This document shows, in pieces, positions 1,239 to 30,297 of a stretch of DNA of 64,000 bases. Origin of the DNA: an uncultured Gemmatimonadaceae bacterium. Lineage in GTDB: Bacteria; Gemmatimonadota; Gemmatimonadetes; Gemmatimonadales; Gemmatimonadaceae. Position 1 is the stretch's first letter. The number at the start of each line of letters is the position of its first letter. The notes beneath the pieces were generated by a model. The model did not search any database. It was not told where the DNA came from and worked only from the letters and a program-made list of their open reading frames with translations. The DNA lies in NCBI GenBank assembly GCA_963817955.1, contig CAWFQK010000005.1, positions 96,001-160,000 on the forward strand. The letters run 5' to 3'. The position numbers and the translations under genes were made by a program.

Positions 1239-2321
1239 ATGTCAGTCTCAAAGAAACTCCTCTTCATTGTTGCGGTCGCGGCATGTACGCGCGCTCCGTC
1301 CGGCACCGTTACGTTCGGCGCGGCCGGCCCGTTCAGCCAGGCGTACGGCTTGGCCAATAAGCAGGGCATTCAGCTCGCCCTCGACGAGATCAACGCGTCG
1401 TGGGGCGCACAACGCCACCTCGAGATCATATTCGCCGACGATTCCGGGAATGGCGCGCGCGCCAGTACGATCGCGCAGGGCTTCGTGGACGACATGCGCA
1501 TCATGGCCGTTGTGGGGCATGTGAACTCCGGCGCCATGGTATCGGCCGCCCGCGTGTACGACACCCACCTCGCCGCCGTCGCGACCACCGCAACATCGCC
1601 GAGCCTCACCGGCATCTCACCCTGGGCGTTCCGGGTGATTCCGAGCGATTCCGCGAACGGCATGACGATCGCTCGCTTCGTCAACAAGCTTGGCCGCAAG
1701 CGGGCCGCGGTGCTCTACGAGAACAACGCATATGGACGGGGCCTCGCCGACAATTTCCGAGATAGTTTCGCCGGCCAGATCATCACGATTGATCCAATCG
1801 GCGAGAGCGCCGATCAGAACTTCGAGCCATATGTGAGCTGGTACAAACGCGAACACCCAGACGTGGTGTTCGTCGCCGGCACCGACGCAACGGGCCTCTC
1901 GTTTCTCAAGGAAGCGCGACGCCAGCAGCTCACCGCCGATCTCGTTGGGGGCGACGGCTGGCAGACGGTTGCGCCGAGTCCCCTCGCCGAGGGCGCATAC
2001 GTTGGCGCGCCGTTCAGCGCACAGGACCAGCGCCCCGAGGTACAGACATTCGTGGCTGCCTACAAGAAGCGATACAATACCACACCCGACGGCAACGCCG
2101 CGCTCGCGTATGATGCCACCAAGTTGTTGGCGAACGCGGTGGAGAAGGTTGGCGCGAACCGGAAGAAGATCCGCGATTATCTCGCGGGACTCACCGAGGC
2201 CGACGCATATCACGGCGTGACCGGGGTCATTCGCTTCCGCCCCGACGGAGATCCCGTCGGCAAAGGCATCGTGATAACGCGCGTGCATCAGGGCATGCTA
2301 CAGGTGGAGGCGAGCCAGTGA
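1239..2321 (+). CDS. Branched-chain amino acid type (LivJ/K-like) solute-binding lipoprotein
   Basis: Lipobox VAVAAC; motifs [35 protein letters not shown]. Start moved to the second ATG. Confidence 0.9.
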
Positions 2322-4027
2322 GCACCCTCGAGCGCCTCAAGCTGAAGACGATTCGCGGCCGCCTGTGGCTGGGCTTCGGCGTTCTCGTCGCGTTGCTCCT
2401 GGTCGCCGGTATCGTGGCACGTCGATCGTTCGCCGGAATGTCGGCGACGATCACGCAGTCGCTCACCGAGGTCCAGGCCGAAGCGCAGCTTTCCAGTCAG
2501 TTGTCAGCCGACGCAGCAAAGACCATCGAGGCGGGCGCCCGATATCTCGAGACGCGTGACAGCACGGCACAGAACGCCTTTCGTAAATTCGGCTGGGCGG
2601 CGCACGACATACAGCACCAGATGAATGAACGGCCGAACCAATCGGCCGGTGAAGTCGCGATGGTTGCGACGATCGACAACAAGTTGTCGGCGATGGAAGT
2701 GAGCTACGCGCTCGCGCATCGCCTGACTGATCTCGGGCGCATGGATGATGCGCGCAAAGCAGCGGCCCAGGCGCGCGGCTCGATTGACGATCTTCTCGAC
2801 AACATCGAACGGCTCGGCGCCTTGAAGGCGCAGAAGGTGGCGGTGGCCAAGCGGGAGCTCGCAGCGGAGGCCGATCGGCGTTCGAGCTGGCTGCTCCTGC
2901 TCATCGGCGCGGCCCTCGTGTTTGGGATTCTCGTGGTGATGTACACCGTGCGAGGCATTGGAGAGCCGCTCGACGCACTCGTACAGCACGCTCGGCGGCT
3001 GAGCGAGGGCGACCTCACGAGCCGCGCGCAGACCGACATGCCGGGCGAGTTCGCCATTCTCGCTTCGGCCATGAATCAGACTGGGGAATCGCTGTCGCGG
3101 GTTGTCGGGGTCGCGGCCCGCACGGCGGAGGAAGTCTCGAGCTCGGCGCACGACCTGGCATCCGTCTCGGAGCAGATCTCGCTCTCGGCCGGCCAGATGG
3201 CAAGCGCCATGACCGACGTCTCCCATGGCGCCGAAATCCAGGTGCAGCAACTCCGCACGGTAGACGAAACGCTTCAGGTGATTCGTGAAGCCGCCGACGG
3301 CGTGAAGAAGCGTTCAGCAGAGGTCACCGATCTGGCGCGCAGCATCGAAGGCGTTGCCCAGGCGAAACGTCTGGAGATCGATCGGGCACTTGGGATTCTC
3401 GTGGACGTGAAGCACAGCGTCGAGGGTGCGGCAGGGGAGATCCGCGCGCTCAATATCACGGTGACCGACATCAACCGCTTCGTGGTTTCCGTCGGCCAGA
3501 TTGCCGACCAGACGAATCTTCTGGCGCTCAATGCAGCGATCGAGGCGGCGCGCGCCGGCGATGCGGGCCGCGGATTTGCCGTGGTCGCCGACGAAGTGCG
3601 GAAACTGGCCGAGCAATCGCAGAAGGCCGCCGATGACATCGTCCAGATGACGGGCGCCGTCACGTCGCGCGTAACATCGAGCGCGCGCGCCATGGAGACA
3701 AGTGCCGGTCGTGTCGGCGAGATTGAAACGGTCTCGCGCGACATTGACGGTGCGCTCCACACGATTACCGAAGCAGCCAGACGGACCCGCATTGCCGCCG
3801 TCGGCGTGACCAGCGCCGCCGAAGCCAATGCCCACACCGTGATCAGCGTTGCGAGCAGTCTCGAGTCTATCGCCAGGACTGCCGAAAGCCACGCCGCGGC
3901 TGCCCAAGAGGTGAACGCGTCGACGCAGGAACAGTCGGCTGCCTGCGAACAGATGACGTCTGCCAGCAACGTGCTGCTGCACGGGTCGACGCAGCTGAAG
4001 GCGCTTGTCGGCGGCCTGAGGACGTGA
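2318..4027 (+). CDS. Methyl-accepting chemotaxis protein (2 TM, periplasmic helical sensor, HAMP)
   Basis: MCP hairpin [42 protein letters not shown] overlap with the upstream gene. Confidence 0.95.
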
Positions 4028-4063: not shown

Positions 4064-4098
4064 GGGGATGGGGGATGGGGGATGGGGGACGGGGGACA
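4064..4098. repeat. Heptamer tandem repeat (GGGGATG-like x5)
   Basis: ggggatg x3, ggggacg, ggggaca. Confidence 0.85.
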
Positions 4099-4114
4099 CG
4101 CGACAACGGACCCC

Positions 4115-4160
4115 TGTCATTCTGAGCGACCCTGTTATCCTGAGCGAAGCGAAGGATCTC
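4115..4160 (+). repeat. REP-like element (partial copy followed by full copy)
   Basis: tgtcattctgagcga, then tgttatcctgagcgaagcgaaggatctc (4133-4160); matches copies at 6146 and 61589. Confidence 0.8.
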
Positions 4161-4293
4161 TGCGAACGGCGGGCCGACGGGATGGCTGGTCGTGGCCAGG
4201 CAGGCGCAACGCGCCGGACTCAGTCTCAACGGTTCGCGCTGTTCCCGCCGCCAGCGCTGAACATCGGACAAAGCAGTATTTGAGAGGGGAGGA

Positions 4294-4327
4294 ACGCGAA
4301 CGGCCGCCCGAGGGCGGCCGTTCGCGT
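4294..4327. terminator. Hairpin downstream of the minus-strand gene ending at 4361
   Basis: Perfect 16-bp inverted repeat acgcgaacggccgccc / gggcggccgttcgcgt. Confidence 0.65.
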
Positions 4328-4360
4328 GTACTGCGGGGTGTGACCTACTGGTGCGGCGTG

Positions 4361-4898
4361 TTACACCGCCGGCAACTGCGAGGCCGGAGGTGGTGGTGCT
4401 GCCGGCGGTGTTGCTGGCGCCGCCGTAGTGCCCTGCGTAGTGCCTTGCGTGGTACTGCCCTGCGTCGTGCCCTGCGTACTGCCCGGCGGCGTGGCATCCG
4501 CTGGTGCCGCGCTCGCGCGAGCGCCGATCTTGATGCCCGGCTTGCGCGCAACGCGCTTCGCCGTGGTCCAGGCCGCCTGCAGGCCGGCATCGGCGCCGAT
4601 CAACGGCAGCAGCAAGCCGTTGAGTACCGTGATGATGGTGCGACCACGCCGCTCCTCGGCCGCCAGCGATGCCGTCGCCCCGCTTCGGACCACGGTTTGC
4701 CCCGATCGCCCATCTATGACGTCCTGCAGCGCCTGCGCGGAGGCCTGCAACCGCGCGAGGAAATCCGCCGGAAGCCCGTTAGCCGTGAACACCGCCACGT
4801 GGCGCGCCGCGGCCTCGCCCATTGCTGCCGCCGCGGCGAGCAGTCGCGTCGTCGATGCGGCGGAGCGCTTCGAGCATACTACCTTCGTGGTATTTCAT
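4361..4898 (-). pseudogene. Hypothetical helical protein gene, apparently frameshifted or internally deleted
   Basis: GGAGG-preceded ATG at 4898 (MKYHEGSMLEALRRI...) is out of frame with the protein-like body (ASTTRLLAAAAAMGEAAARHVAVFTANGLPADF...) ending at 4361. Confidence 0.55.
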
Positions 4899-4981
4899 GT
4901 GGCCTCCCGGCCAACGGGGCGCCGAAAGAGAGCTGCCCCCGACGGGCGCCCGACGCGCCGGGGTCGAAAAACGGGAACATC

Positions 4982-6010
4982 CGCCTCGAGCGGTTGCGGT
5001 GTGGTCTTGGGGAGTTGCGCTGTGGTCTTGAGGAGTTGCGATATCGTCTCGGAGAATTGGGGTGTCGTCTCAGAGAGTTGGGGTGCCGCCTCAGCGAGGT
5101 GAGGTGTCGTCTCGGAGAGTTGGGGGGCCGCCTCAGCGAGGTGGCGTGGCAGCTCGAGGCGTTGGGATCCCGTCTCAAGGCGTTGGGGTGCCCGCTCGAC
5201 GAGTTACGATCCCAGCTCGACGAGTTGGAGTGCTCTCTCGCCGCACTCCGATTGCGTCTCGGCGAGTTCGGATTCCAGCTCGACGCGCCGGGGTGCCGTC
5301 TCGCCGCGTTCCGATTGTGTCTCGACGAGTTGGAGTGCCGTCTCGCCGCGCTCCGATTGTGTCTCGACGAGTTGGAGTGCCGTCTCGCCGCGCTCCGATT
5401 GTGTCTCGACGAGTTGGAGTGCCGTCTCGCCGCGCTCCGATTGTGTCTCGGCGAGTTGGAGTGCCGTCTCGCCGCGCTCCGATTGTGTCTCGGCGAGTTG
5501 GGGTGCCGTCTCTGCACGCAAGAGAGCCGTCTCGCGGCGATGCGATGCGATCTCGACGCGATCGCATCCCTCCTCGGCAAGTTGCAATGCCTGCTCGGCA
5601 CGCGAGGATCCTGGCTCACCGCGCTGGGATCCTTGCTCGCCGCGTTACGATTCCGTCTCGACGCGCAACGATCCCTGCTTGATCCGTTGCGATTCCGTCT
5701 CGACGCGCAACGATCCTTGCTTGATCTGTTGGGATTCCGTCTGGGCAGGCGACGATCCCAGCTTGGCGCGTTGCGATCCTATCTTGGCGCGCGACGATCC
5801 CTGCTTGACGCGTTGCGATGCCATCTCGCCGCGTTAGGATCCCATCTCGACACGATCGAATCCCATCTCGACACGATCGAATCCCATCTCGACACGATCG
5901 AATTCCATCTCACCACGATCGATCCCGTCTCGACCCATTCGCATTCGAAGCGTGTCAGGATCGATCCCGTCTCGACCCATTCGCATTCGATGTGTGGCAC
6001 GAGCGATCCC
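4982..6010. repeat. Degenerate 21-nt-period array with a 42-bp x5 core (5293-5512)
   Basis: Unit gtgccgtctcgccgcgctccgattgtgtctcg(a/g)cgagttgga at 5293, 5335, 5377, 5419, 5461; atcccatctcgacacgatcga copies near 5839-5920; gtctcg/gctcg recurs every 21 nt. Confidence 0.95.
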
Positions 6011-6145
6011 GTCTCGCGCCCGCTCGTCCCACATTGATCATAGTCCTATATATTAGTTCCGAAATTGGGGGGTCAGCGCAAGGGCCAATGTGACCGATTG
6101 GCCAAAACCGACATGTTTTGAGCGTTTCGGCGTTAGTAGATAGTA

Positions 6146-6316: not shown

Positions 6317-8107
6317 TTACTGCTGGCACCGCGCCTTCGGATCGCCGGCGGGCTTGTCGACTGCCGGCCGATGATCGAGATCGGCGACATACGTCCCGAG
6401 CTTGAACATGAAGTTGCCGATCTTCGCCATGTGCGGGTAGTCGATGTACTCCGGCTCATCCGTCACCTGGTGATAATCGCCGTGCAGACCGGTCGTGACG
6501 AACACGATCGGAATGCCATAGCGCGCATAATTGAAGTGATCGCTGCGGCAGTAAATGTTGTCCGGATGGCCGTTGGCATCGAACTGATAGTCGAGCTTGA
6601 ACGGCGCCTTTTCCTGGTTGTTGATCTTCTCGAAAATGTCACCGAGCTCCGTCGATACACGGCGTGAGCCGACAAGCTGCAAGTAGGTCGGCCCACCCTC
6701 GAACAGATCTGACGCCGCACCACGACCGACCATGTCCATGTTGAGCTGCGCGACAATCGACTCGCGCGGCACCGGCGGATGATCGGTCACGTACTGCGAG
6801 CCCCATAATCCCTTCTCTTCGGCAACGTGCCAGACGAAGAGTACCGACCGCTTCGTCTTCGGCTTGTCCTTCGCGAACCGCTCGGCGATCTCGAGGAGCG
6901 TCACCGTGCCCGAGCCGTCGTCGTCTGCACCGTTGCTGATCGAATCAATCCGAATACCGCCGTTCACCTTCCGCACGCTGTCGAGATTGATGTGGATCGC
7001 GGCGATCTGTGCGTTCAGCGAATCGAGGTGCGCCTGCTGGGCCGGCGCCGCCGGGCTGCAGTTCGCCTGCTGACGCCCGCCGCAAATCTTGTTCTGCAGA
7101 TTGAAGAGCGCGATGCGCTCGCGAATCGGATACGCCTGCTCGGCGTACAGGTGCAGCGAGTCGTGGTCGACACCGCCCGTTGCGCGGATGCCAATGTGGT
7201 CGTTGTGGGCGCCCATCGCCACCCATTCGTTCTTGAGCTTCGGGTCGCTGCCGATATACCCGGCGATGACGTTGCGCGCTGGCGCATCAGCGTCGATGAA
7301 CTTGATGTTGGCGCTCAGCGTTTTGCCGGCGGTACCGCGGGCCATTCCGGCGAGCGGTGCGCCAAGCAACTGCTCCGCGGCGTGCCGGGTAATCGTCACC
7401 GTCGGCGCCGTCGCGGGCTCTGCCGGGTCGGGCGTCAACTGGACGGCACCCTCCCGCGGATGCAACGCTGTGTTCACGAGCGCCGGCGTGAGTTGATCGA
7501 CAACCGTGATTGTCGCCGCTGGGCCATTCGCCCCAGCACCACGCCCCGGGCCCGCGCCCCCGCGCCCACCGCGCGCTCCACCTCGACCGCCACGCCCCGT
7601 GGCCGCCGGCTGCTCGTACAACACGATCTTGCCGTGCATCTGATCGGGTGTCAGCGCGTTCGTGGTGTCGCCGAGCACGCCACCGAACACGACCGGCGCC
7701 GATGCAAACGCCCCGACATTTCCACGGCCGGCGCTGGCCACGAAGTCCGTTCCCGCGTGCAACGTCACGCCATCAGCCGTGATCGTGGAATTCTGATCGA
7801 GCGACCGGCGAATCACCGGCACCTTCTGGAAATACGTGCCGTTGTCGCCCATTGGCTTGAGGCCAAGAGCCTTCAACTGCGCGGCGATATACGCAGTGGA
7901 CTTGACGTGTCCGCGCGTTCCAGTCTCACGGCCTTCCATGGAATCGGCCGCGTAGATGTACAGTCGGGTCTTCAAATCGGCCGCGGATATGGCTGCAGCC
8001 GTCGGTTGCGGAGTGTGCGTCCGCGGCTGTGACTTCGGATTTTGCGCGGCGGCAAGCGCCGGCAGTCCGAGCACCGCGGCGCCCAGGACATGAGAGAATC
8101 GCTTCAC
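6317..8107 (-). CDS. Secreted M28 family metallopeptidase with PA-like region
   Basis: [43 protein letters not shown] motifs; signal peptide from GTG at 8107. Confidence 0.92.
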
Positions 8108-8278
8108 GATGTACCCGTCGTATGAGGAGGGAGGGTCGTCTGACAGGATCAATCTATTTTCTGTACGCGGCTCGCGGAGGGGGTGCTGCATCATTCAGCC
8201 ATTGCGACACCCGGGCGGACCGTCGAGCTTCGAGTGACACCACGACCCGACCAACGCTTTCCGCCCCCAAAACGCTCC

Positions 8279-9400
8279 ATGCGCCTGGAAACTCTCGCCG
8301 TGCACGCCGGCCACGAGGTCGACCCCTCGACCGCTGCCGTCACTCCGCCAATTCATCTCTCGACGACCTATGCCCGCGAGGCCGATGGCTCCTATCGCGC
8401 CGGATTTCTCTATTCCCGATACGCGAATCCGAATCGCGCGGCGCTCGAGCAGTGTCTCGCGCTGCTCGAGGGAGGCGAAGCGGCAGCCGCGTTTTCGTCC
8501 GGTTCCGCGGCGACGATGACGCTCCTCCAAGCGATTGGACCCGGTTCCCACATCGTCGCGCCCGACGACGCGTACTTCGGCACCACCAAGCTGGTCCGCG
8601 ACGTCTTCGGCCCCTGGGGGGTGGAGCTGTCTGCCGTGGACATGACGGACCTGGCGAATGTGCGCGGAGCCATGCGCTCGAACACGAAACTCGTCTGGGT
8701 GGAAACTCCATCCAATCCGCTACTACAGGTAGTAGACATCGCGGCCATCGCCCAGATCGCACACGACGGCGGGGCAATCTGCGCGGTAGACAACACCTGG
8801 GGCACGCCAGTGCTTCAGCGGCCACTGGACATCGGGGCCGATGTCTCGATGCACGCAACCACCAAGTACCTCGGCGGTCACAGCGACGTGCTTGGCGGTG
8901 CGCTCGTTCACAAACGGAGCGACGAGCTGTTCCAGCGCGTGAACTCCATTCAGATGACGGGCGGCGCTGTGCCGTCGCCCTTCGACTGCTGGCTCACCAT
9001 GCGCGGTATCCGCACCCTTCCCTTGCGCGTGCAGGCACAGAGTGCCAGTGCGCTCCTACTGGCCGAATTCCTGGCCGGGCACCCACGCGTAGAAGCGGTG
9101 CACTATCCCGGGTTGCCGTCGCACGCCGCACACGACATCGCCGTGCGGCAGATGAGCGCCTTTGGTGGCATGCTGTCGGTTCAGGTCGGGCTCGACCGCG
9201 TCGAGTCGATACGCATCGCCAGCGCGCTCCAACTGTTTACACAGGCCACCAGCCTCGGTGGAACGGAGAGCCTCGTCGAACATCGCGCTTCTGTGGAAGG
9301 GCCGGGCACGCGCGCGCCAGAGAATCTGTTGCGCGTCTCGGTCGGCCTGGAGCACATCGAGGATCTGAAAGCCGACTTCGCGCAGGCGCTCGGCCACTAA
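8279..9400 (+). CDS. Cys/Met metabolism PLP enzyme (cystathionine gamma-synthase/lyase)
   Basis: [38 protein letters not shown]. Confidence 0.93.
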
Positions 9401-22619: not shown

Positions 22620-22862
22620 ATGAAAGTCGAGCAGCGCTGGCCGTCCACGCAGATGGCCCCGTCCACACGCGTGCGGATGATCGTCTCCGACGACGGTCGG
22701 CTATGGACGGTGCGCGAAGTACAAGCGCCGCCGTACGACCGGCGAGGAGCGCTCTCGCTCGTATTCGCCACGGACGACGCCATGCGTCGCGTACGGCATT
22801 ACCGCAGCGATTGGTTCGAGTGCTCGGATGTCGAACTGTACGCCATCAGCCTTCAGAAATAG
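22620..22862 (+). CDS. Small hypothetical protein (W-x-V-x-E...RRV...DW domain)
   Basis: Shares a motif with the N-terminus of the 29689 protein; sigma54-like promoter upstream. Confidence 0.75.
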   Translation: MKVEQRWPSTQMAPSTRVRMIVSDDGRLWTVREVQAPPYDRRGALSLVFATDDAMRRVRHYRSDWFECSDVELYAISLQK

Positions 22863-22866
22863 TCGG

Positions 22867-24156
22867 TCATATGGCAGAACGACGCTCGCGCACCTCGCGC
22901 CGTTGCCGGGGTAGCGTCAGCGTGAACGCTGAACCGTGGCCGAGTTGACTGGTCACCGTGATGTCGCCCCCCATGGCGCGCGCCAAGTCGCGGCTGATGG
23001 GCAGCCCCAGTCCCGTGCCGTCGCGTTTGGATGACGGATCTCCAACCTGTACGAACGGCTCGAATACCGCGCTGAGATATCCGTCCCGAATGCCGCACCC
23101 AGTATCAGCAACGTGTATGGACACTCGATCATCGCACGCCTCACACATGATCGTGATATGCCCGCCGGGCTCGGTGAACTTGATGGCGTTCGACAACAAG
23201 TTGACCAGGATCTGACGCGTCTTTTCGGGATCGGCATAGGTCGTCAGTTCGCAGTCAGCTGTGTCGCGCGCGGTGGCCACGACGTGCAGGCGCTTCGCCA
23301 GGGCCTGCGGCTCGACGAGCGTCTGCACATCGCTGATGATGTCGCGCACGACGATGTCGCGTGCATCGAGTTCCAGGCGGCCGGCCTCGATCTTGGCGTA
23401 GTCGAGTACCTCAGTGATCACGCCGATCAGATGCTGCTCGCTGCGCCGGATGCGTTCGAGCATCTCCTTTTGCTGCGCCGTGACCGGTCCATGGAGCCCC
23501 ATGGCGATCAGGTCGACGTAGCCGCCAATGGCGTTGAGCGGCGTGCGCAACTCGTGACTCATGGCGGCAAGGAAGCGCGCCTTGGCCGCGTTCGCCTCCT
23601 GTGCGATTTCTGACTCGTGCTCAGCCGCCGACGCGCGGCGGTCGCTTCGCATGGCGTTCGTGACGTCTTCCACGCGGTGAATGACGTAGGTCACCCGCGC
23701 GTCTTCGTCGAACACCGGGATGTTCGTCGGACTCCAGAACCGCTCCTCCCACCCGCCATCGGCCTGGCGCACGTTGTACTGATGCACCCGCATGGTTTCC
23801 AACGTGCCGCTCTCGACAACGCGTCCCAGCGACGCGAGCAGCGCGCGGACACTGGTCGGACTCCATTGCCCCGGTTGCTCGGCAAACACGTCGGACAGGG
23901 CGCGACCGAGAATGCTCCTGCCGGAGCCATCGGGGGCCGTCATCGTGGTGCGCAGATACGCATCGGTCACGGTGACGATGGTGAAGCGCGGCGGATCGGC
24001 GCGCACTACCAGGAGTGGAACGGGGACCGCGTCGAGCAGCCTCCGCAGGTCGCGCACCGGCATGCGCGTTCTTGCTGTGGAACGCCATGGTGCGCCGCCT
24101 GTTCTGCCGATCCAATCCGCTTCCATGATGACCACCTCCTGCCAGCCGATGGTCAT
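22867..24156 (-). CDS. Soluble PAS sensor histidine kinase
   Basis: PAS (EERFWSPTNIPV), MSHELRTPLNAI, NLLSNAIKFT, GTGLGL. Exact start uncertain. Confidence 0.92.
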   Translation of the reverse strand: MTIGWQEVVIMEADWIGRTGGAPWRSTARTRMPVRDLRRLLDAVPVPLLVVRADPPRFTIVTVTDAYLRTTMTAPDGSGRSILGRALSDVFAEQPGQWSPTSVRALLASLGRVVESGTLETMRVHQYNVRQADGGWEERFWSPTNIPVFDEDARVTYVIHRVEDVTNAMRSDRRASAAEHESEIAQEANAAKARFLAAMSHELRTPLNAIGGYVDLIAMGLHGPVTAQQKEMLERIRRSEQHLIGVITEVLDYAKIEAGRLELDARDIVVRDIISDVQTLVEPQALAKRLHVVATARDTADCELTTYADPEKTRQILVNLLSNAIKFTEPGGHITIMCEACDDRVSIHVADTGCGIRDGYLSAVFEPFVQVGDPSSKRDGTGLGLPISRDLARAMGGDITVTSQLGHGSAFTLTLPRQRREVRERRSAI

Positions 24157-24252
24157 GCATCTCCTGCACCTGCAAGACCGAACGCTTCCGCAGGCGCCGG
24201 CCGAGCACGCGAACAGCTGTCGGCCGTACCGAGCCGTGAAGGGCAGTGCGGA

Positions 24253-24855
24253 TCAGCGCGTAGTCGTTCTCGTATCGAACAACCAGTACAGCACGCCAGA
24301 GCTCGTGGCGCCGAGTAACGGGACGACGCTCACCGTTGCCCGCACCTCGACTGGCGTGTCGCCCATCCGGTGCAGAACCAGTCGCCAGTCGGTGACCATG
24401 GAGTCCGCCGCGAGACGCGAAACCTGTTTGCGAAATGCGTCGCGCTGCCCAACCTCGACCAGTGCGGCCATCGGTTTCCGTTCGAGGTAGCGCCCTTCGC
24501 GCCGGAACAACTCCGAGGCGGCGAGGTTCGTCTCGAGAATGGTCGCGTAGAGATCCGTAATCAACACCGGCAACGGCGAGTGCAGGAACAGGTTTCGATA
24601 ATGAAACAGGCGCTCGTCCTCGGCCGCGCGCGCGGCCCCGAGCAGCGCGTTCTGCTCACGCAGTTCCTCTTCCGCAACCTTCAACTCTTCGAGCGATGTC
24701 ATCAGCAATCCGGTGACCGCCGGCAATGCATCGGCACGATGGGCCGGGGGACAATCGCTCGAGCCATCGAGCACTTCGCTGGCCCGTGTGAGAACGGTGT
24801 GGCGACAACGCGCCAGTGCCGATAGGGTGGGATTGGATTCTGTTTCGGCGAGCAT
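24253..24855 (-). CDS. Coiled-coil plus PAS protein without output domain
   Basis: SLEELKVAEEELREQN helix, then YRNLFLHSP...ETNLAA PAS; paralogous to the N-terminus of the 25100 gene. Confidence 0.85.
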   Translation of the reverse strand: MLAETESNPTLSALARCRHTVLTRASEVLDGSSDCPPAHRADALPAVTGLLMTSLEELKVAEEELREQNALLGAARAAEDERLFHYRNLFLHSPLPVLITDLYATILETNLAASELFRREGRYLERKPMAALVEVGQRDAFRKQVSRLAADSMVTDWRLVLHRMGDTPVEVRATVSVVPLLGATSSGVLYWLFDTRTTTR

Positions 24856-25099
24856 TGGTGCCTCTCTGTGACGTCGTTTTCCAGTACGACTGCACCGTAC
24901 CTACAAGGCAAATTTTGTGCTGGCGCCGTACCGCTGAGGGTTGCGGCGCCACCGGCCACCGTTATGACGGAACTCGCGCAGAATGATGTCAGGCAATTCC
25001 CGGAATTGCGTTGGTCTGGTTCGCGGCATACGATCCGATGAGGACCAGGCGTCCACCGCAGCGACGTTCCTGGCCCTCCGCATCTTCGTCCATTAAGAG

Positions 25100-26532
25100 A
25101 TGTCTGATTCCCCGGAACAAGGCGCGCGCGCCACACCGGCGCAGGGATGGAGTCTCCCGATCGCCTTCTGGCAGGACGAAGTCGCGCAAGCTCGCTCGCG
25201 CGTCGCGGCCATGCGCGCCGGCACGTCCGCGAACGATCATGCATCGGGCGGCGCGCCCGCGTTGCACGAGCTGTCGCTGAGTTTCGAGGAGCTCTCCGTC
25301 GCCGAAGAGGAGCTGCGCACACAGAACGAAGAACTCGTACGGACATACGCGGCGGTCGACGCCGACCGCCAGCGCTATCGCGAGTTGTTCGAACACGCGC
25401 CCGTCGCCTATCTCGTCACCGACGAGCACGGCATCATCCAGGAGGCGAACGAATCTGCGAGCCGTCTCTTTGGTTGCCGCCGCGAGTGGATACAGGCAAA
25501 CCCCTCGTCGTGTTTGCACCGCAGTCGTCGCGCCGAGCGTTGCGGACATGGCTCGGATCGCTCGCCACGATCGAGGGGAGCATCACACGCTCCTTTCAGA
25601 TCCGGGACCGTCATGGGCACATCAGGCGGATCGAAGCCAGCGTCGCCGTGGCTCGTCGCATTGCCGATGCCGGCGTGGAGCTGCGGTGGCTGCTGGTCGA
25701 CCGAACCAAGCGCGCACGCCGCGAGCGGGAGCAACGCGCACGGGCGGCCGAGCTCGAAACTCTGGTCGCGGCGCGCACGGCAGAACTGCTGCAAGCGCAG
25801 GCGACGAAGGACCGGCTCGTGGCTACCGTGAGCCACGAGTTTCGCACGGCGTTGTCGGCAATCGGCGGCTACGCGGAGCTGCTGGCGATGGGCCTTCGTG
25901 GTCCGCTCACCGAACCACAAGCCGAGGACGTGCGACGCATCCAGCGGGCGTACCATCATCTCAGCCACGTCGTCGACGACTTGCTGAGCTACAGCAAGAT
26001 CATTTCGGGGCATCTGTCTCTGCACGTGACCGACGTGGCGCTGCGCGATGCGTTACGCGCCATTGCAGAATTGGTGATGCCGCAGGCGGCAGCGCGCCAC
26101 ATCACCATCACGCTCGGCGATACCGATCAAAGCCTGGTGGTCCGCGCGGACACCGACCGGTTGCGCCAGATCGTCCTGAACCTGCTTGGCAACGCGATCA
26201 AATTCGTTCCGACGCAGGGTCGTATCGACGTGCGCTGCCGCGCGGATGCAACCGACGTGTACGTCGACGTTGCGGACAACGGACCAGGCATTCCTCCAGC
26301 AGAGCGGGAAGGCGTATTCGAGGCTTTCGTGAGCCATCCTTCCCCGGCTGGCGTTGTGGGCACCGGACTCGGAATGGCGATCAGCCGCGATCTCGCGCGT
26401 GCCATGGGAGGAGATCTCGCCATCAAGCCGCAGGAAGACGGTGGAAGTTGTTTCGTGCTTCGCCTGCCGCGGAGCACGCCTCTTGCGACCATCGACTGCC
26501 GTGTCGAGCCGAATACAGACCCTGGATCATAG
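25100..26532 (+). pseudogene. Coiled-coil/PAS histidine kinase with a single-base frameshift near 25495
   Basis: Frame 25100 reads to REWIQ; the continuation GKPLVVF...SHEFRT...NAIKF...GTGLG is in the 25147 frame; one extra G in caggcaaa joins them. Confidence 0.85.
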
Positions 26533-26549
26533 CCAGCCGGAGGGCGTGG

Positions 26550-27590
26550 ATGTTAAGACGGGACATCATCGTGATTGGAGGGTCGGCAGGCGGAGTCGAA
26601 GCCCTCGAGACCATCGCCCGGACGCTTCCAGCATCGTTTGACGGATCGATCTTCGCCACGCTGCACTTTCCGGAGCACGGTACGAGTCTGCTCCCGGCGA
26701 TCCTGTCGCGAGTGAGTGCCGTTCCCGCCTCGCACGCCACGGACGGGGAGGCGATCATGCCAGGGCGAATCTACGTCGCGTCCCCTGACTACCACTTGTT
26801 ACTGACGCAGGACCGGATACGACTGGTTCGAGGCCCGAGAGAAAACGGCAGCCGCCCTGCCGTCGACGTCTTGTTTCGCTCTGCGGCCCTCGCCTTCGGG
26901 AGACGCGTGATTGGCGTCGTGCTCACCGGCAACCTCGACGATGGAACCGCCGGTCTCGCGGCGATCAAGCGACGTGGCGGCATCGCCGTCGTTCAGGACC
27001 CTGACAGCGCACTGTTTCCATCTATGCCACGCAGCGCGCTCGACAACGTTGCCGTGGATCGCGTGGTGAGCATCCAGCAACTCACCCAGGTGCTGATCGA
27101 ACTCATGGTCGAGCTCCCGCCTGACAACGAGATTCCGCCGACCGAACGCGACATCATGGAAAACGAGCTTGCCGCCGGAAACGTGCGCGCAATGGATCAT
27201 GCCGAAGAGCAGCATCCCGGTGTGCCATCTGCGTTCTCCTGCCCCGATTGCGGCGGCGTGCTCTGGGAACTGCACGACGGTGAATTCACCCGGTTTCGTT
27301 GCCGCGTCGGTCACGCCTGGACCGCCAATGCACTGTACGGCGAGCAAGCAAGAAAACTTGACGAGGCGCTCTGGACCGCGCTCCGCGCGCTCGAGGAAAG
27401 CGCGGCGCTCTCGCGCCGGATGGCGGCGCGCCACCGAGCACGCGGCTCGGATGGGCTCGCCGCGCGATTCGAAGCGCAGGCAGACCAGGCGACGTCTCGC
27501 GCCGGCGTGATTCGTGATGCCATTGCCGCTGACCGAGAATTGGACGAACAATCCATTGCCCAGGACGGAATTCCCAAGCGAGCGTCCTGA
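26550..27590 (+). CDS. cheB: CheB-type methylesterase without REC domain, with a C-terminal Cys-rich and helical extension
   Basis: GGSAGG, TLHF, RPAVDVLF, LTGNLDDG; then CPDCGG...CRVGH. It is the C-terminal part of track ORF 25470..27590. Confidence 0.92.
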   Translation: MLRRDIIVIGGSAGGVEALETIARTLPASFDGSIFATLHFPEHGTSLLPAILSRVSAVPASHATDGEAIMPGRIYVASPDYHLLLTQDRIRLVRGPRENGSRPAVDVLFRSAALAFGRRVIGVVLTGNLDDGTAGLAAIKRRGGIAVVQDPDSALFPSMPRSALDNVAVDRVVSIQQLTQVLIELMVELPPDNEIPPTERDIMENELAAGNVRAMDHAEEQHPGVPSAFSCPDCGGVLWELHDGEFTRFRCRVGHAWTANALYGEQARKLDEALWTALRALEESAALSRRMAARHRARGSDGLAARFEAQADQATSRAGVIRDAIAADRELDEQSIAQDGIPKRAS

Positions 27591-27601
27591 TGTCATCCGG
27601 C

Positions 27602-27617
27602 TGGCGCGCACCGTGCC
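27602..27617 (+). promoter_or_regulatory. sigma54 -24/-12-like site upstream of cheR
   Basis: tGGcgcgcaccgtGC. Confidence 0.5.
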
Positions 27618-27689
27618 AGACATGATACTTACACGCGCCGCGCGCGGCGCATCCGACGCAGCGCGACTCCTCTTCCGCCACCGTCCATC

Positions 27690-29636
27690 GTGTCTGAACA
27701 AGCCAACGACCTCGAGGCTCTCCTCGACTATTTGAAGCGGACGCGTGGGTTCGATTTCACCGGGTACAAGCGCACCAGCCTCGAGCGTCGAATCCTCAAA
27801 CGCATGCAGAGCGTGAGGGTGGCGTCATTCGCCGACTACCTCGATTATCTCGAGGTACACCCCGAAGAGTTCCCCGGGTTGTTCAACACGGTGCTCATCA
27901 ATGTCACCAGCTTCTTTCGCGACCCATCCACCTGGGAGTTCATCGCGGAATCAGTGATCCCCGATCTGCTGGCCCAACGCGCCTCCGGACACCCCCTTCG
28001 GGTGTGGAGCGCGGGATGTGCCTCGGGTGAAGAAGCGTATACCTTGGCGATGTTGTTCGCCGAAGCGCTCGGCGTCGATGCGTTCCAGGAACGGGTGAAG
28101 ATCTACGCCACCGATGTCGACGAAGAAGCACTCGCCAAGGCGCGCCAGGCGGCTTACAGCGAGCAGGAAGTGGCCGACATACCGCCGGCCCTGCTGAAGA
28201 AGTACTTCGAAAAGAGCGGCGGGCTGTACGTGTTCCGGAAGGACCTCAGACGCCATGTGATCTTCGGCCGGCACGACCTCATCCAGGACGCACCGATCTC
28301 GCACGTCGACATGCTCGTGTGTCGGAACACGCTCATGTACTTCAACGCGGAAACGCAGGCGAAGATCATCGCGCGATTCCAGTATGCGCTGGCCGACCAC
28401 GGCGTGCTGGTCCTGGGACGCGCCGAGACGTTGATGACGCACACGAACGCGTTCACGCCGCTCGATCTCAAGCGCCGCGTTTCGAAGAAGCTGCCGGCAA
28501 GCGCATACCGCGGCGATCGTCTGAAGTTCGCTGCGCGGCAGGCACAAGGTGACCAGCCGGAGCCCACCGACCAGGGGCTGCTCCGTGATGCGGCGTTCGA
28601 CGCGAATCAGACCGCGCAACTGGTGGTTCAGGTGAATGGCAGTCTCGCGCTGGCGAACGAGCGCGCCCGCGCGATGTTCGGCATTTCGCCCAGCGACGTC
28701 GCGCGCCCGTTGCAGGACCTCAAGATCTCGTATCGTCCCATTGAGTTGCGATCCATCATCGAACGCGTGTACCTCGAGCGCCGTCCGACGGTGCTGCCCG
28801 ACGTCGAGTGGATGTCGCTCAGCGGCGACAATCGTTGGCTGGAGGTGACCGTGGTGCCGCTGATCGGTCCGCTACGCGGAGTGATCGCCGGTGCAAGTAT
28901 CACGTTTCACGACATCACGGCAGCCAAGCGACTCCAGCGCGATCTCGAGCACACCCATCAGGAGCTCGAGACAGCGTACGAGGAGTTGCAATCGACGAAC
29001 GAGGAACTGGAGACCACGAACGAGGAGCTTCAGTCGACCGTGGAAGAGCTCGAGACGACGAACGAGGAGCTACAGGCGACGAACGAAGAGTTCGGGACAA
29101 TGAATGAGGAGTTGCAGTCGACGAACGAAGAGCTGCAGACGATGAACGACGAGCTCCGTCGACGCGACGAAGAGATCAATCGGGCCAACGCGTTTCTCGA
29201 GAGCATACTCGGCAGCCTGAACGGCGCGGTGATTGTCGTCGATCGCAAACTCAACGTTCTCCTTTGGAATGAAGGGGCGGAGGAGTTGTGGGGACTGCAC
29301 GAGGAAGAGCTGCGCGGCAAGAGTTTCCTCGACCTCGACATCGGCTTGCCGACCGAGCAGCTCGAGCAGCCCCTCCGCGCCTGCTTGAGCGGAGAACAAG
29401 AGCGCGCTTCGCTCACGATCGACGCGATCAATCGACGGGGCCACGACCTTACCTGCCGCGTGTCAGTATCGCCGGCACGCCCCCGCACCGGCGATATCCT
29501 CGGCGCAATTCTCGTCACGGAAGTCGTACTCGCAATCAAGCGAAACGGGCCCGGGAATGGCGACCGCGACGGCGCGAACGGACGCACCCAAACCCCCGCC
29601 AACGCAAAAAAACCGACACTGAACCGCGAGCGCTGA
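27690..29636 (+). CDS. cheR: CheR methyltransferase with PAS-coiled coil-PAS
   Basis: NVTSFFRD, WSAGCASGEEAY, ATDVD, CRNTLMYF; (EELQSTN/EELETTN)n coil between two PAS domains. Confidence 0.93.
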   Translation: MSEQANDLEALLDYLKRTRGFDFTGYKRTSLERRILKRMQSVRVASFADYLDYLEVHPEEFPGLFNTVLINVTSFFRDPSTWEFIAESVIPDLLAQRASGHPLRVWSAGCASGEEAYTLAMLFAEALGVDAFQERVKIYATDVDEEALAKARQAAYSEQEVADIPPALLKKYFEKSGGLYVFRKDLRRHVIFGRHDLIQDAPISHVDMLVCRNTLMYFNAETQAKIIARFQYALADHGVLVLGRAETLMTHTNAFTPLDLKRRVSKKLPASAYRGDRLKFAARQAQGDQPEPTDQGLLRDAAFDANQTAQLVVQVNGSLALANERARAMFGISPSDVARPLQDLKISYRPIELRSIIERVYLERRPTVLPDVEWMSLSGDNRWLEVTVVPLIGPLRGVIAGASITFHDITAAKRLQRDLEHTHQELETAYEELQSTNEELETTNEELQSTVEELETTNEELQATNEEFGTMNEELQSTNEELQTMNDELRRRDEEINRANAFLESILGSLNGAVIVVDRKLNVLLWNEGAEELWGLHEEELRGKSFLDLDIGLPTEQLEQPLRACLSGEQERASLTIDAINRRGHDLTCRVSVSPARPRTGDILGAILVTEVVLAIKRNGPGNGDRDGANGRTQTPANAKKPTLNRER

Positions 29637-29688: not shown

Positions 29689-30297
29689 ATGCGAGAGTTG
29701 ACCCGAAACGGAACGCCGTGGTGTGTGCACGAGCTCGACACGTCCCGCGTGCCCGGCGCACGAGCGGACCATTGCCTCATCTACGAGAGCGAGGACGTCG
29801 TCCGCCGCGTATGGGCATATCCGCCAGACTGGGATGCGCTCGCTGACGACCTGCTCTGGGCACTGATGGAGTCGCGTTCCGCGACGTACGCACCGAGCCC
29901 CCAGGAAACGGCAGAGTCGACGCTCACGCGCGAGCGAGCGGTAGAGATCCCGGTCACGCGCGAGCTCGCGACTATCGAGCGGGCGTTTGACGTTACGGCA
30001 CGTACGCGCTCGCTGCTGGCAGAGCTCCATGTGTCGCGGGAGTGCAGTCAGAGCCTGATCGACGAACAGCGCGAGCTACGAGAGCGTTGTCGAACGGTTC
30101 ATCAGGCAATGCAGGAGTCGGTGCGGGCCTACGCCATGTTGCTGCGGCGGGACGGCGTGCCGCCGGAACAGGCCTTGGTTCTGATCAAGCAGGCAATGCA
30201 GGGGGGCATCACCGGTCCCTGTTTGGACGAGATGGCGGCCGAGCAGGTGTTGCGCCACGGTGTTGAATGGTGCATCGACGCGTACTTCGCGGCGTGA
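29689..30297 (+). CDS. Hypothetical protein (small W-x-V-x-E domain plus helical C-terminal domain)
   Basis: GGAGG upstream; N-terminus similar to the 22620 protein; C-terminus ...GVPPEQALVLIK...WCIDAYF. Confidence 0.75.
   Translation: MRELTRNGTPWCVHELDTSRVPGARADHCLIYESEDVVRRVWAYPPDWDALADDLLWALMESRSATYAPSPQETAESTLTRERAVEIPVTRELATIERAFDVTARTRSLLAELHVSRECSQSLIDEQRELRERCRTVHQAMQESVRAYAMLLRRDGVPPEQALVLIKQAMQGGITGPCLDEMAAEQVLRHGVEWCIDAYFAA

Follow-up and report, generated by a model that had tools for sequence, protein, structure and literature searches.

The stretch of DNA analyzed here (the window, 64,000 nucleotides) corresponds to positions 96001–160000 of contig C5 in genome G000 (4.5 Mb, 9 contigs, 94% complete), from an uncultured member of the Gemmatimonadaceae, the family to which the close homologs are assigned by their source records. 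It contains a gene cluster encoding a receiver-less CheB methylesterase, a coil-bearing CheR methyltransferase, and two divergently transcribed helix-PAS proteins, one with and one without a kinase, which together resemble a methyl-accepting coiled-coil (MAC) system divided among separate proteins. Coordinates are window positions, and genomes are labeled G, loci L, database proteins P, and genera g; paired glutamates are written EE. The module comprises the following features:

24253–24855, minus strand: kinase-less helix-PAS protein, 200 amino acids (Pfam PAS; AlphaFold2 [AF2] model; Foldseek PAS fold)
24649–24696, minus strand: candidate methyl-accepting helix of 24253, residues 54–69 (conservation, heptad register)
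24685–24687, minus strand: predicted methylation site Glu57 of 24253 (heptad position c)
25100–26532, plus strand: helix-PAS-HisKA-HATPase kinase gene, frameshifted near 25493 (Pfam in two frames)
25280–25327, plus strand: EE helix of the 25100 kinase (heptad pattern)
26550–27590, plus strand: receiver-less CheB methylesterase (Pfam CheB_methylest, residues 8–182; AF2 model; solved-structure match)
about 27222–27323, plus strand: Cys3His β ribbon of CheB (conserved residues, AF2 model)
27690–29636, plus strand: CheR_N-CheR-PAS-coil-PAS methyltransferase with no output domain (Pfam, CheR motifs)
about 28959–29189, plus strand: acidic heptad coil of CheR (heptad consensus matches)

The most conspicuous element of CheR is the coil that lies between its two PAS domains. 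Pfam and heptad matches bear out the initial annotation of a CheR with a long coil in this position and no output domain, and a check of the sequence finds the catalytic motifs intact. The coil is strongly acidic, with 28 Asp or Glu against 5 Lys or Arg in 91 residues, and six consecutive heptads match the pattern [EQ][EQ]xx[ASTG][ASTG], a run not reached in any of 20000 shuffles of its sequence; a seventh match lies at 473. Scored by the small-residue positions of the methylation consensus, which we took together with the heptad position-c rule from the accessible part of PMC6829392, five of the coil pairs hold 3/4 positions and one holds 4/4, against 2/4 in the partner helices described below. 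With this better fit, CheR's own coil is probably the main substrate, and its methylation, as predicted from the sequence, is highly likely.

The CheB of the module consists of an esterase core and a C-terminal tail. Pfam and NCBIfam matches cover the esterase part only, with no receiver (REC) domain, and the core superimposes on the solved structure 3sft (Z 31.2, root-mean-square deviation 1.4, 184 residues). Both the Ser-His-Asp triad and the fold of a CheB methylesterase are present, with S12, H39, and D131 invariant in 41/41 aligned sequences. In the AF2 model (predicted local distance difference test score, pLDDT, of 94.5), the core is followed by a small β ribbon (residues 225–258) and a helical hairpin (259–338). 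Tail residues C231, C234, C251, and H255 are invariant in the same 41/41 sequences, and L281-E282-E283 are at least 90% conserved. Pfam and this alignment thereby support what had been read from the DNA, namely a CheB that lacks REC, retains Ser, His, and Asp, and adds a Cys/His tail and an LEESAA helix. The Cys3His ribbon may bind metal.

A Pfam search assigns the tail to no family, and it is present in 2005 of 2743 candidate proteins; InterPro/PIRSF reportedly has an entry for CheB proteins that lack the receiver and are extended at the C terminus. Fold matches of the helical hairpin (Z 8–9, including two fragments of methyl-accepting chemotaxis proteins, MCPs) barely cover the ribbon, are generic, and were not taken as homology. 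The LEESAA helix, holding fewer than two of the four small-residue positions of the consensus, is a weak candidate for a methylation substrate. Tail proteins standing alone are represented by Atlas leads (0.91–0.92) and 219 short hits, mostly from short contigs, and P0177, from a contig of 1.3 kb that may be an assembly chimera, joins the tail to part of a sigma-54 activator. The tail is found in 11 of 11 scored loci with a kinase and is missing from 7 of 11 scored kinase-less loci (L056, L150, L151, L154, L160, L176, and L180, about three branches, all kinase-less). Its retention with the kinase and frequent loss without it hint that the tail serves the kinase branch.

The product of 24253 is modeled (AF2, pLDDT 86) as a short N-terminal helix (residues 9–29) and a long helix bearing the EE pairs (37–91), followed by the PAS domain. 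In 120 listed homologs (181–249 amino acids, from a search confined to lengths of 110–350 amino acids), five glutamates of the long helix are strongly conserved: E56 in 100%, E57 in 95%, E62 in 100%, E63 in 96%, and E64 in 99%. E56 and E62 are never substituted in this set, and E57 is substituted in 6 homologs, only by Ala or Gly. The 24253 and 25100 products are divergent paralogs (48% identity across 84 amino acids), in agreement with the first description of the pair; the helices singled out in that description do not open the proteins, as it had stated, and start at residues 54 and 61, preceded by a short N-terminal helix that is seen in the model of 24253. The two-heptad pattern of these helices matches 4 of 12266 frames in the genome, and 3 of those 4 lie in the locus. 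The 24253 helix-PAS also aligns without gaps and in register, over 78 columns, to the last two heptads and PAS of CheR; this match is weak (probability 33, E 4.6e-4) and suggests a shared origin. Among the 30 other genomes of the genus, 12 carry an ortholog of 24253 with a short open frame, genus-level searches found no additional genomes carrying the gene, and no match to a sigma-70-type promoter was found in the divergent gap between 24253 and 25100.

The kinase gene is divided between two frames, with the helix and the first half of the PAS domain in 25100–25831 and the remaining PAS together with HisKA-HATPase in 25147–26532. It is one base short near 25493 relative to 5 of 5 aligned relatives, a defect overlooked in the initial annotation. 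The kinase is a single open frame in G009, G012, G016, and G029, and in G028 a stop lies within the helix. The sequencing runs listed were three from soil, with small shares of matching words, and no RNA run; their contigs barely cover the site near 25493 and list no indel there. The genome-wide background of frameshifts is 4 in 136 orthologous genes (53,169 amino acids aligned); an assembly error at this site is possible but would be uncommon. We lean toward a real frameshift, and the kinase branch is probably dead in this genome. Two further apparent frameshifts in the window lie at about 10088 and 14297 by comparison with G009 orthologs.

The distribution of the partners across 400 genomes of the family links the helix-PAS proteins to CheR. 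A close ortholog of the coil-PAS half of CheR is present in 40/400, and 78 more match it only at lower strength, almost always within long fused frames; a helix-PAS protein is matched in 46/400, three of them (G033, G079, and G090) without the EE helix. Helix-PAS matches occur in 30 of 39 CheR-bearing genomes versus 16 of 359 without CheR, a comparison that excludes G061 (of the 40) and G344 (of the 78) and in which related genomes are not independent, so that its P value overstates the association.

A contrast at a single residue, Glu57 of 24253, accompanies the presence or absence of CheR. The test covers 24 genomes of the clade; loci from a metagenome scan seeded with the intact motif (80 loci) were used for gene order and kept out of it. 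All five glutamates are intact in 18 of 18 genomes with a CheR ortholog. Among the six without one, G027 has E57A, G018 has E57G, G391 has E57Q, and G008 has E63A, with G007 and G011 intact (Fisher P 0.0014 for 4/6; 0.0099 not counting Q; 0.035 within the genus). G027, G018, and G391 each adjoin intact, CheR-bearing rows on the tree. At 38 other conserved positions, taken as control columns, G027 differs at 0 and G018 at 1; G008 differs at 5 of 38 and looks generally relaxed. Both G018 and G027 are 99% complete and hold only two short CheR frames each, and neither the tailed CheB nor the coil-CheR was found in either. When database proteins are added to a quick tree, changes of E57 to Ala or Gly fall on five separate branches. 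Neutral replacements of this kind mimic methylation in chemoreceptors. In genus g60, 8 of 9 genomes with a 24253-type protein hold CheR, with no cheB/cheR neighbor in the loci read.

The analysis establishes the anatomy, conservation, co-occurrence, and substitution pattern; that the glutamates are methylated and with what consequence, that the tail binds metal, and what the output is are inferred. Our explanation, which we consider reasonably probable, is that a MAC1-like chain has been split into separate proteins. Using S-adenosylmethionine, CheR would modify glutamates at position c, chiefly those of its own strongly acidic coil, and would also act in trans on Glu57 of the 24253 helix and on the glutamate that corresponds to it in the kinase; the tailed CheB would strip the methyl groups. 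Neutralization of charge would tighten the coiled coil ahead of the PAS domain and so shift whatever follows it: depending on the genome, a kinase or a GGDEF-EAL enzyme, and in the output-less 24253 family a protein contact. Candidate outputs of 24253 are a heterodimer with CheR or with the kinase, or contact with the product of the 29689 gene downstream of cheR. Chemoreceptors, CheA, and CheW would be dispensable. The co-occurrence of helix-PAS and CheR, the gene order within the genus, and the changes of Glu57 where the enzymes are lost all support action in trans, and these same results uphold the initial proposal of a split MAC-like module with trans substrates, in which methylation stays a prediction. 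The accompanying suggestion, that methylation tunes soluble kinases with 24253 as a decoy, is weakened: the kinase is frameshifted here, stopped in G028, and absent from 13/25 loci (see below), and the best consensus matches sit in CheR's own coil. On balance, trans methylation of Glu57 itself seems rather likely.

Several observations weigh against this reading. A retest of the nine remaining CheR-bearing genomes with a family profile leaves 7 without a helix-PAS partner. The motif persists in G007 (79% complete, with a fused MAC1) and G011 (81% complete), neither of which has a CheR ortholog, and G391 is only 68% complete. Six g25 genomes without a CheR of this type keep unlinked helix-PAS kinases with the first EE pair intact; the three of these checked hold other CheRs. 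In another kinase-less clade, also adjacent to cheB/cheR, the first pair reads AD or DD and the second is kept, and G355 combines a broken CheR with an intact E57. The CheR-less sample is small (6 genomes), the E57-changed database proteins include five of unestablished context, and the changes at E57 may mean no more than that, of the surface positions, it tolerates substitution best.

The alternative that survives best is that CheR acts only in cis, methylating just its own coil, and that the partner helix is a structural signaling helix, derived from duplication of the coil-PAS and conserved for dimerization or docking. The coil does fit the consensus better than the partner helices, G110, G147, G172, and G194 have CheB and CheR but no partner that could be detected, and EE pairs persist in the g25 kinases that have no CheR of the module's type. 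However, action in cis alone leaves unexplained both the repeated loss of E57 with loss of the enzymes, while control columns hold, and the tight co-occurrence of helix-PAS and CheR, and we consider it unlikely, if still a serious contender. A little less likely again is a kinase-free glutamate-methylation circuit, in which the output-less 24253 would be the main conserved target and would signal by contact (the 29689 product being a candidate), a neutral Glu57 would fix a methylated-like state after loss of cheB/cheR, and a metal- or redox-gated Cys3His ribbon would replace phosphorylation of CheB.

The gene order bears on the role of the kinase. Our sample comprised 56 distinct 24253 orthologs, 20 of which had too little upstream DNA, leaving 36 informative loci; duplicates were counted once by the first locus met, which hides a few longer loci. 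Reading divergently from 24253, the first gene met is the kinase in 12 loci, cheB with no kinase in 13, and the 29689 gene in 5; the remaining 6 loci show none of the three there. The initial annotation had looked to a conserved gene order, and within the genus it is conserved. In the 25 loci with cheB or the kinase as first divergent neighbor, the kinase is absent from 13 and 24253 is retained, which indicates that the kinase is dispensable and 24253 the steadier partner. In L188, a 24253 ortholog with E64Q directly faces the 29689 gene with no cheB/cheR between them. Paralogy with the kinase and the divergent layout, with the kinase first in 12 of the 36 informative loci, could suggest that the 25100 kinase is the one target of 24253, which would act on it as a decoy or dominant-negative partner. 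We regard this as quite improbable: about half of the cheB-linked loci have no kinase, so that a plain decoy role does not account for 24253; 13 of the 36 loci retain 24253 and cheB/cheR in the absence of the kinase, the kinase gene is damaged both here and in G028, and no further helix-PAS gene besides 24253 and 25100 was found in the genome.

Least probable is that the CheB/CheR pair provides additional adaptation for ordinary chemoreceptors. The genome does offer seven MCP matches above the cut-off, one of them 19 kb from the module within the window, but CheW is already grouped with CheB and CheR at two other places (on C4 and C7, never on C5), the same coil occurs in fused CheB-CheR-kinase proteins, and the neighbors across phyla are helix-PAS outputs. 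Genome-wide, the other matches above the cut-off are 4 CheB, 3 CheR, and 7 CheW-domain proteins. A profile search finds no CheW domain anywhere on contig C5, hence no cheA or cheW in the cluster, as first noted from the window; stand-alone cheY had no separate search. The MCP gene in the window (2318–4027, plus strand), overlooked initially, is an orphan that lies after a periplasmic binding protein gene (1179–2321), and the C-terminal part of its product bears heptad EQ/EE consensus sites. The long open frame at 4082–6037 (plus strand) has repeats of about 14 residues and no Pfam match, and may be no more than a shadow frame of an opposite-strand gene.

MAC systems were reportedly described by Wuichet and Zhulin in 2010. 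In MAC2 systems, CheR is a stand-alone protein. The module shares with MAC1 its CheB, CheR, PAS, acidic heptad coil, and kinase, without CheA or CheW; a methyl-accepting-type coiled coil follows CheR and PAS, and the coil is homologous to that of the long fused proteins in 78 other genomes of the family. In contrast to MAC1, the module is spread over three or four genes, here and in relatives, as separate open reading frames with stops, so that the defining fusion is absent; CheR keeps the long coil, the output protein has a two-heptad helix of its own, one partner is output-less, and CheB has a Cys3His tail. With MAC2 it shares separate cheB and cheR genes beside a kinase, in the order kinase-cheB-cheR in the window and in relatives, and the combination of EE helix and kinase in one protein is intact in the four relatives with a single open frame and frameshifted here. 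It differs from MAC2 in that its CheR carries PAS-coil-PAS and in that the kinase is often lost or broken. By its sequence, the locus would work like MAC1 minus the fusion; it has the gene arrangement of MAC2 only in genomes with an intact kinase. Elsewhere in G000 (C7, 127277–132251), the fourth, receiver-less cheB lies between kinase-like and receiver-bearing genes with no cheR found adjacent, resembling a MAC2-type locus minus the methyltransferase. Neither cheA with cheW in the cluster nor a receiver-bearing CheB, the marks of a canonical chemosensory system, is present in the module. It shares with MCP adaptation the CheR and CheB catalytic domains and heptad EE sites at position c; it differs in that its substrates lack the MCP signaling domain and its CheB lacks a receiver.

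In the accessible parts of bioRxiv 10.1101/2022.05.07.491037 and PMC6943060, MAC1 is defined as a CheB/CheR-incorporated methyl-accepting coiled-coil, and MiST3 has profiles for MAC1 and MAC2 (PMC6943060). Those parts of the 2022 preprint (bioRxiv 10.1101/2022.05.07.491037) state that MAC proteins are experimentally uncharacterized, and no later test under that name was found in our literature searches. A separate methyltransferase acting on the signaling helix of a non-CheA kinase has a precedent in RsbM, which methylates the S-helix of RsbK in Bacillus cereus, according to the accessible text of PMC4574943 and PMC12848376; kinase methylation by a separate methyltransferase is therefore not new. 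In these same portions, RsbK is a membrane CHASE3-HAMP-GAF hybrid kinase controlling sigma B, unlike the soluble helix-PAS partners of the module, and a coil-bearing CheR, a tailed CheB, or an output-less partner is not described. No paper describing the split form, a partner without a kinase, or the Cys3His tail came up in our literature search, which left most subscription journals outside its reach, and the accessible text of PMC2577667 and PMC8396549 contained nothing on the subject.

The split form extends to other phyla. The helix-PAS gene stands straight after cheR in L001 (a cyanobacterium), L003 (another Gemmatimonadota), and L024 (Thermoanaerobaculia), and the tailed CheB was found in 28 loci of many phyla, often beside long fused CheB-CheR proteins. 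The outputs are mostly kinases (HATPase_c in 55 of 66 long representatives), with GGDEF-EAL in L001 and L218. In L001 (11707–15876), GGDEF-EAL and kinase helix-PAS outputs both follow one cheR, and one enzyme pair may serve two outputs. In L221 and L222 (about 7830–8450), a receiver-like sequence precedes the helix-PAS segment, upstream of cheB/cheR on the same strand. A split MAC1-like module, as judged by these gene contents, is common in the Gemmatimonadaceae and occurs in other phyla.

Two genes flank the module:

29689–30297, plus strand: uncharacterized 202-amino-acid protein, syntenic companion (gene order)
22867–24156, minus strand: PAS-HisKA-HATPase kinase, neighbor (no EE helix)

In four loci of the genus (G004, G006, G016, and G028) the 29689 gene follows cheR; in G009 it lies about 0.6 kb farther away. 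At loci that have lost the kinase, cheB, and cheR, it directly faces 24253. Its product matches no Pfam or PDB family (Atlas 0.77). The C-terminal domain is single-copy here and found in 109/400 family genomes (a count that takes in G061, G087, and G186), too widespread for membership to be proven by occurrence. The link is suggestive, making the product a possible module member or output. An 80-amino-acid frame at 22620–22862 (plus strand), with no family, resembles the N-terminal part of the 29689 protein, and a third relative lies on C4 near 679974. The 22867 kinase had been placed within the module; it has no EE helix, its N-terminal part is unmatched in any fetched locus, and it was rejected as a member and is probably a mere neighbor.

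The module is real and widespread; it matters chiefly for its partner without a kinase, for the contrast at Glu57, and for a CheB tail that has no name. It offers small soluble parts and one named residue, Glu57 of a 200-residue protein, picked out by gene loss in relatives, which makes the methylation of MAC helices (whether, where, and in trans) directly addressable by mass spectrometry. The CheB tail, unnamed in Pfam and spread over about 2000 sequence clusters, may represent a new, phosphorylation-free control of the methylesterase.

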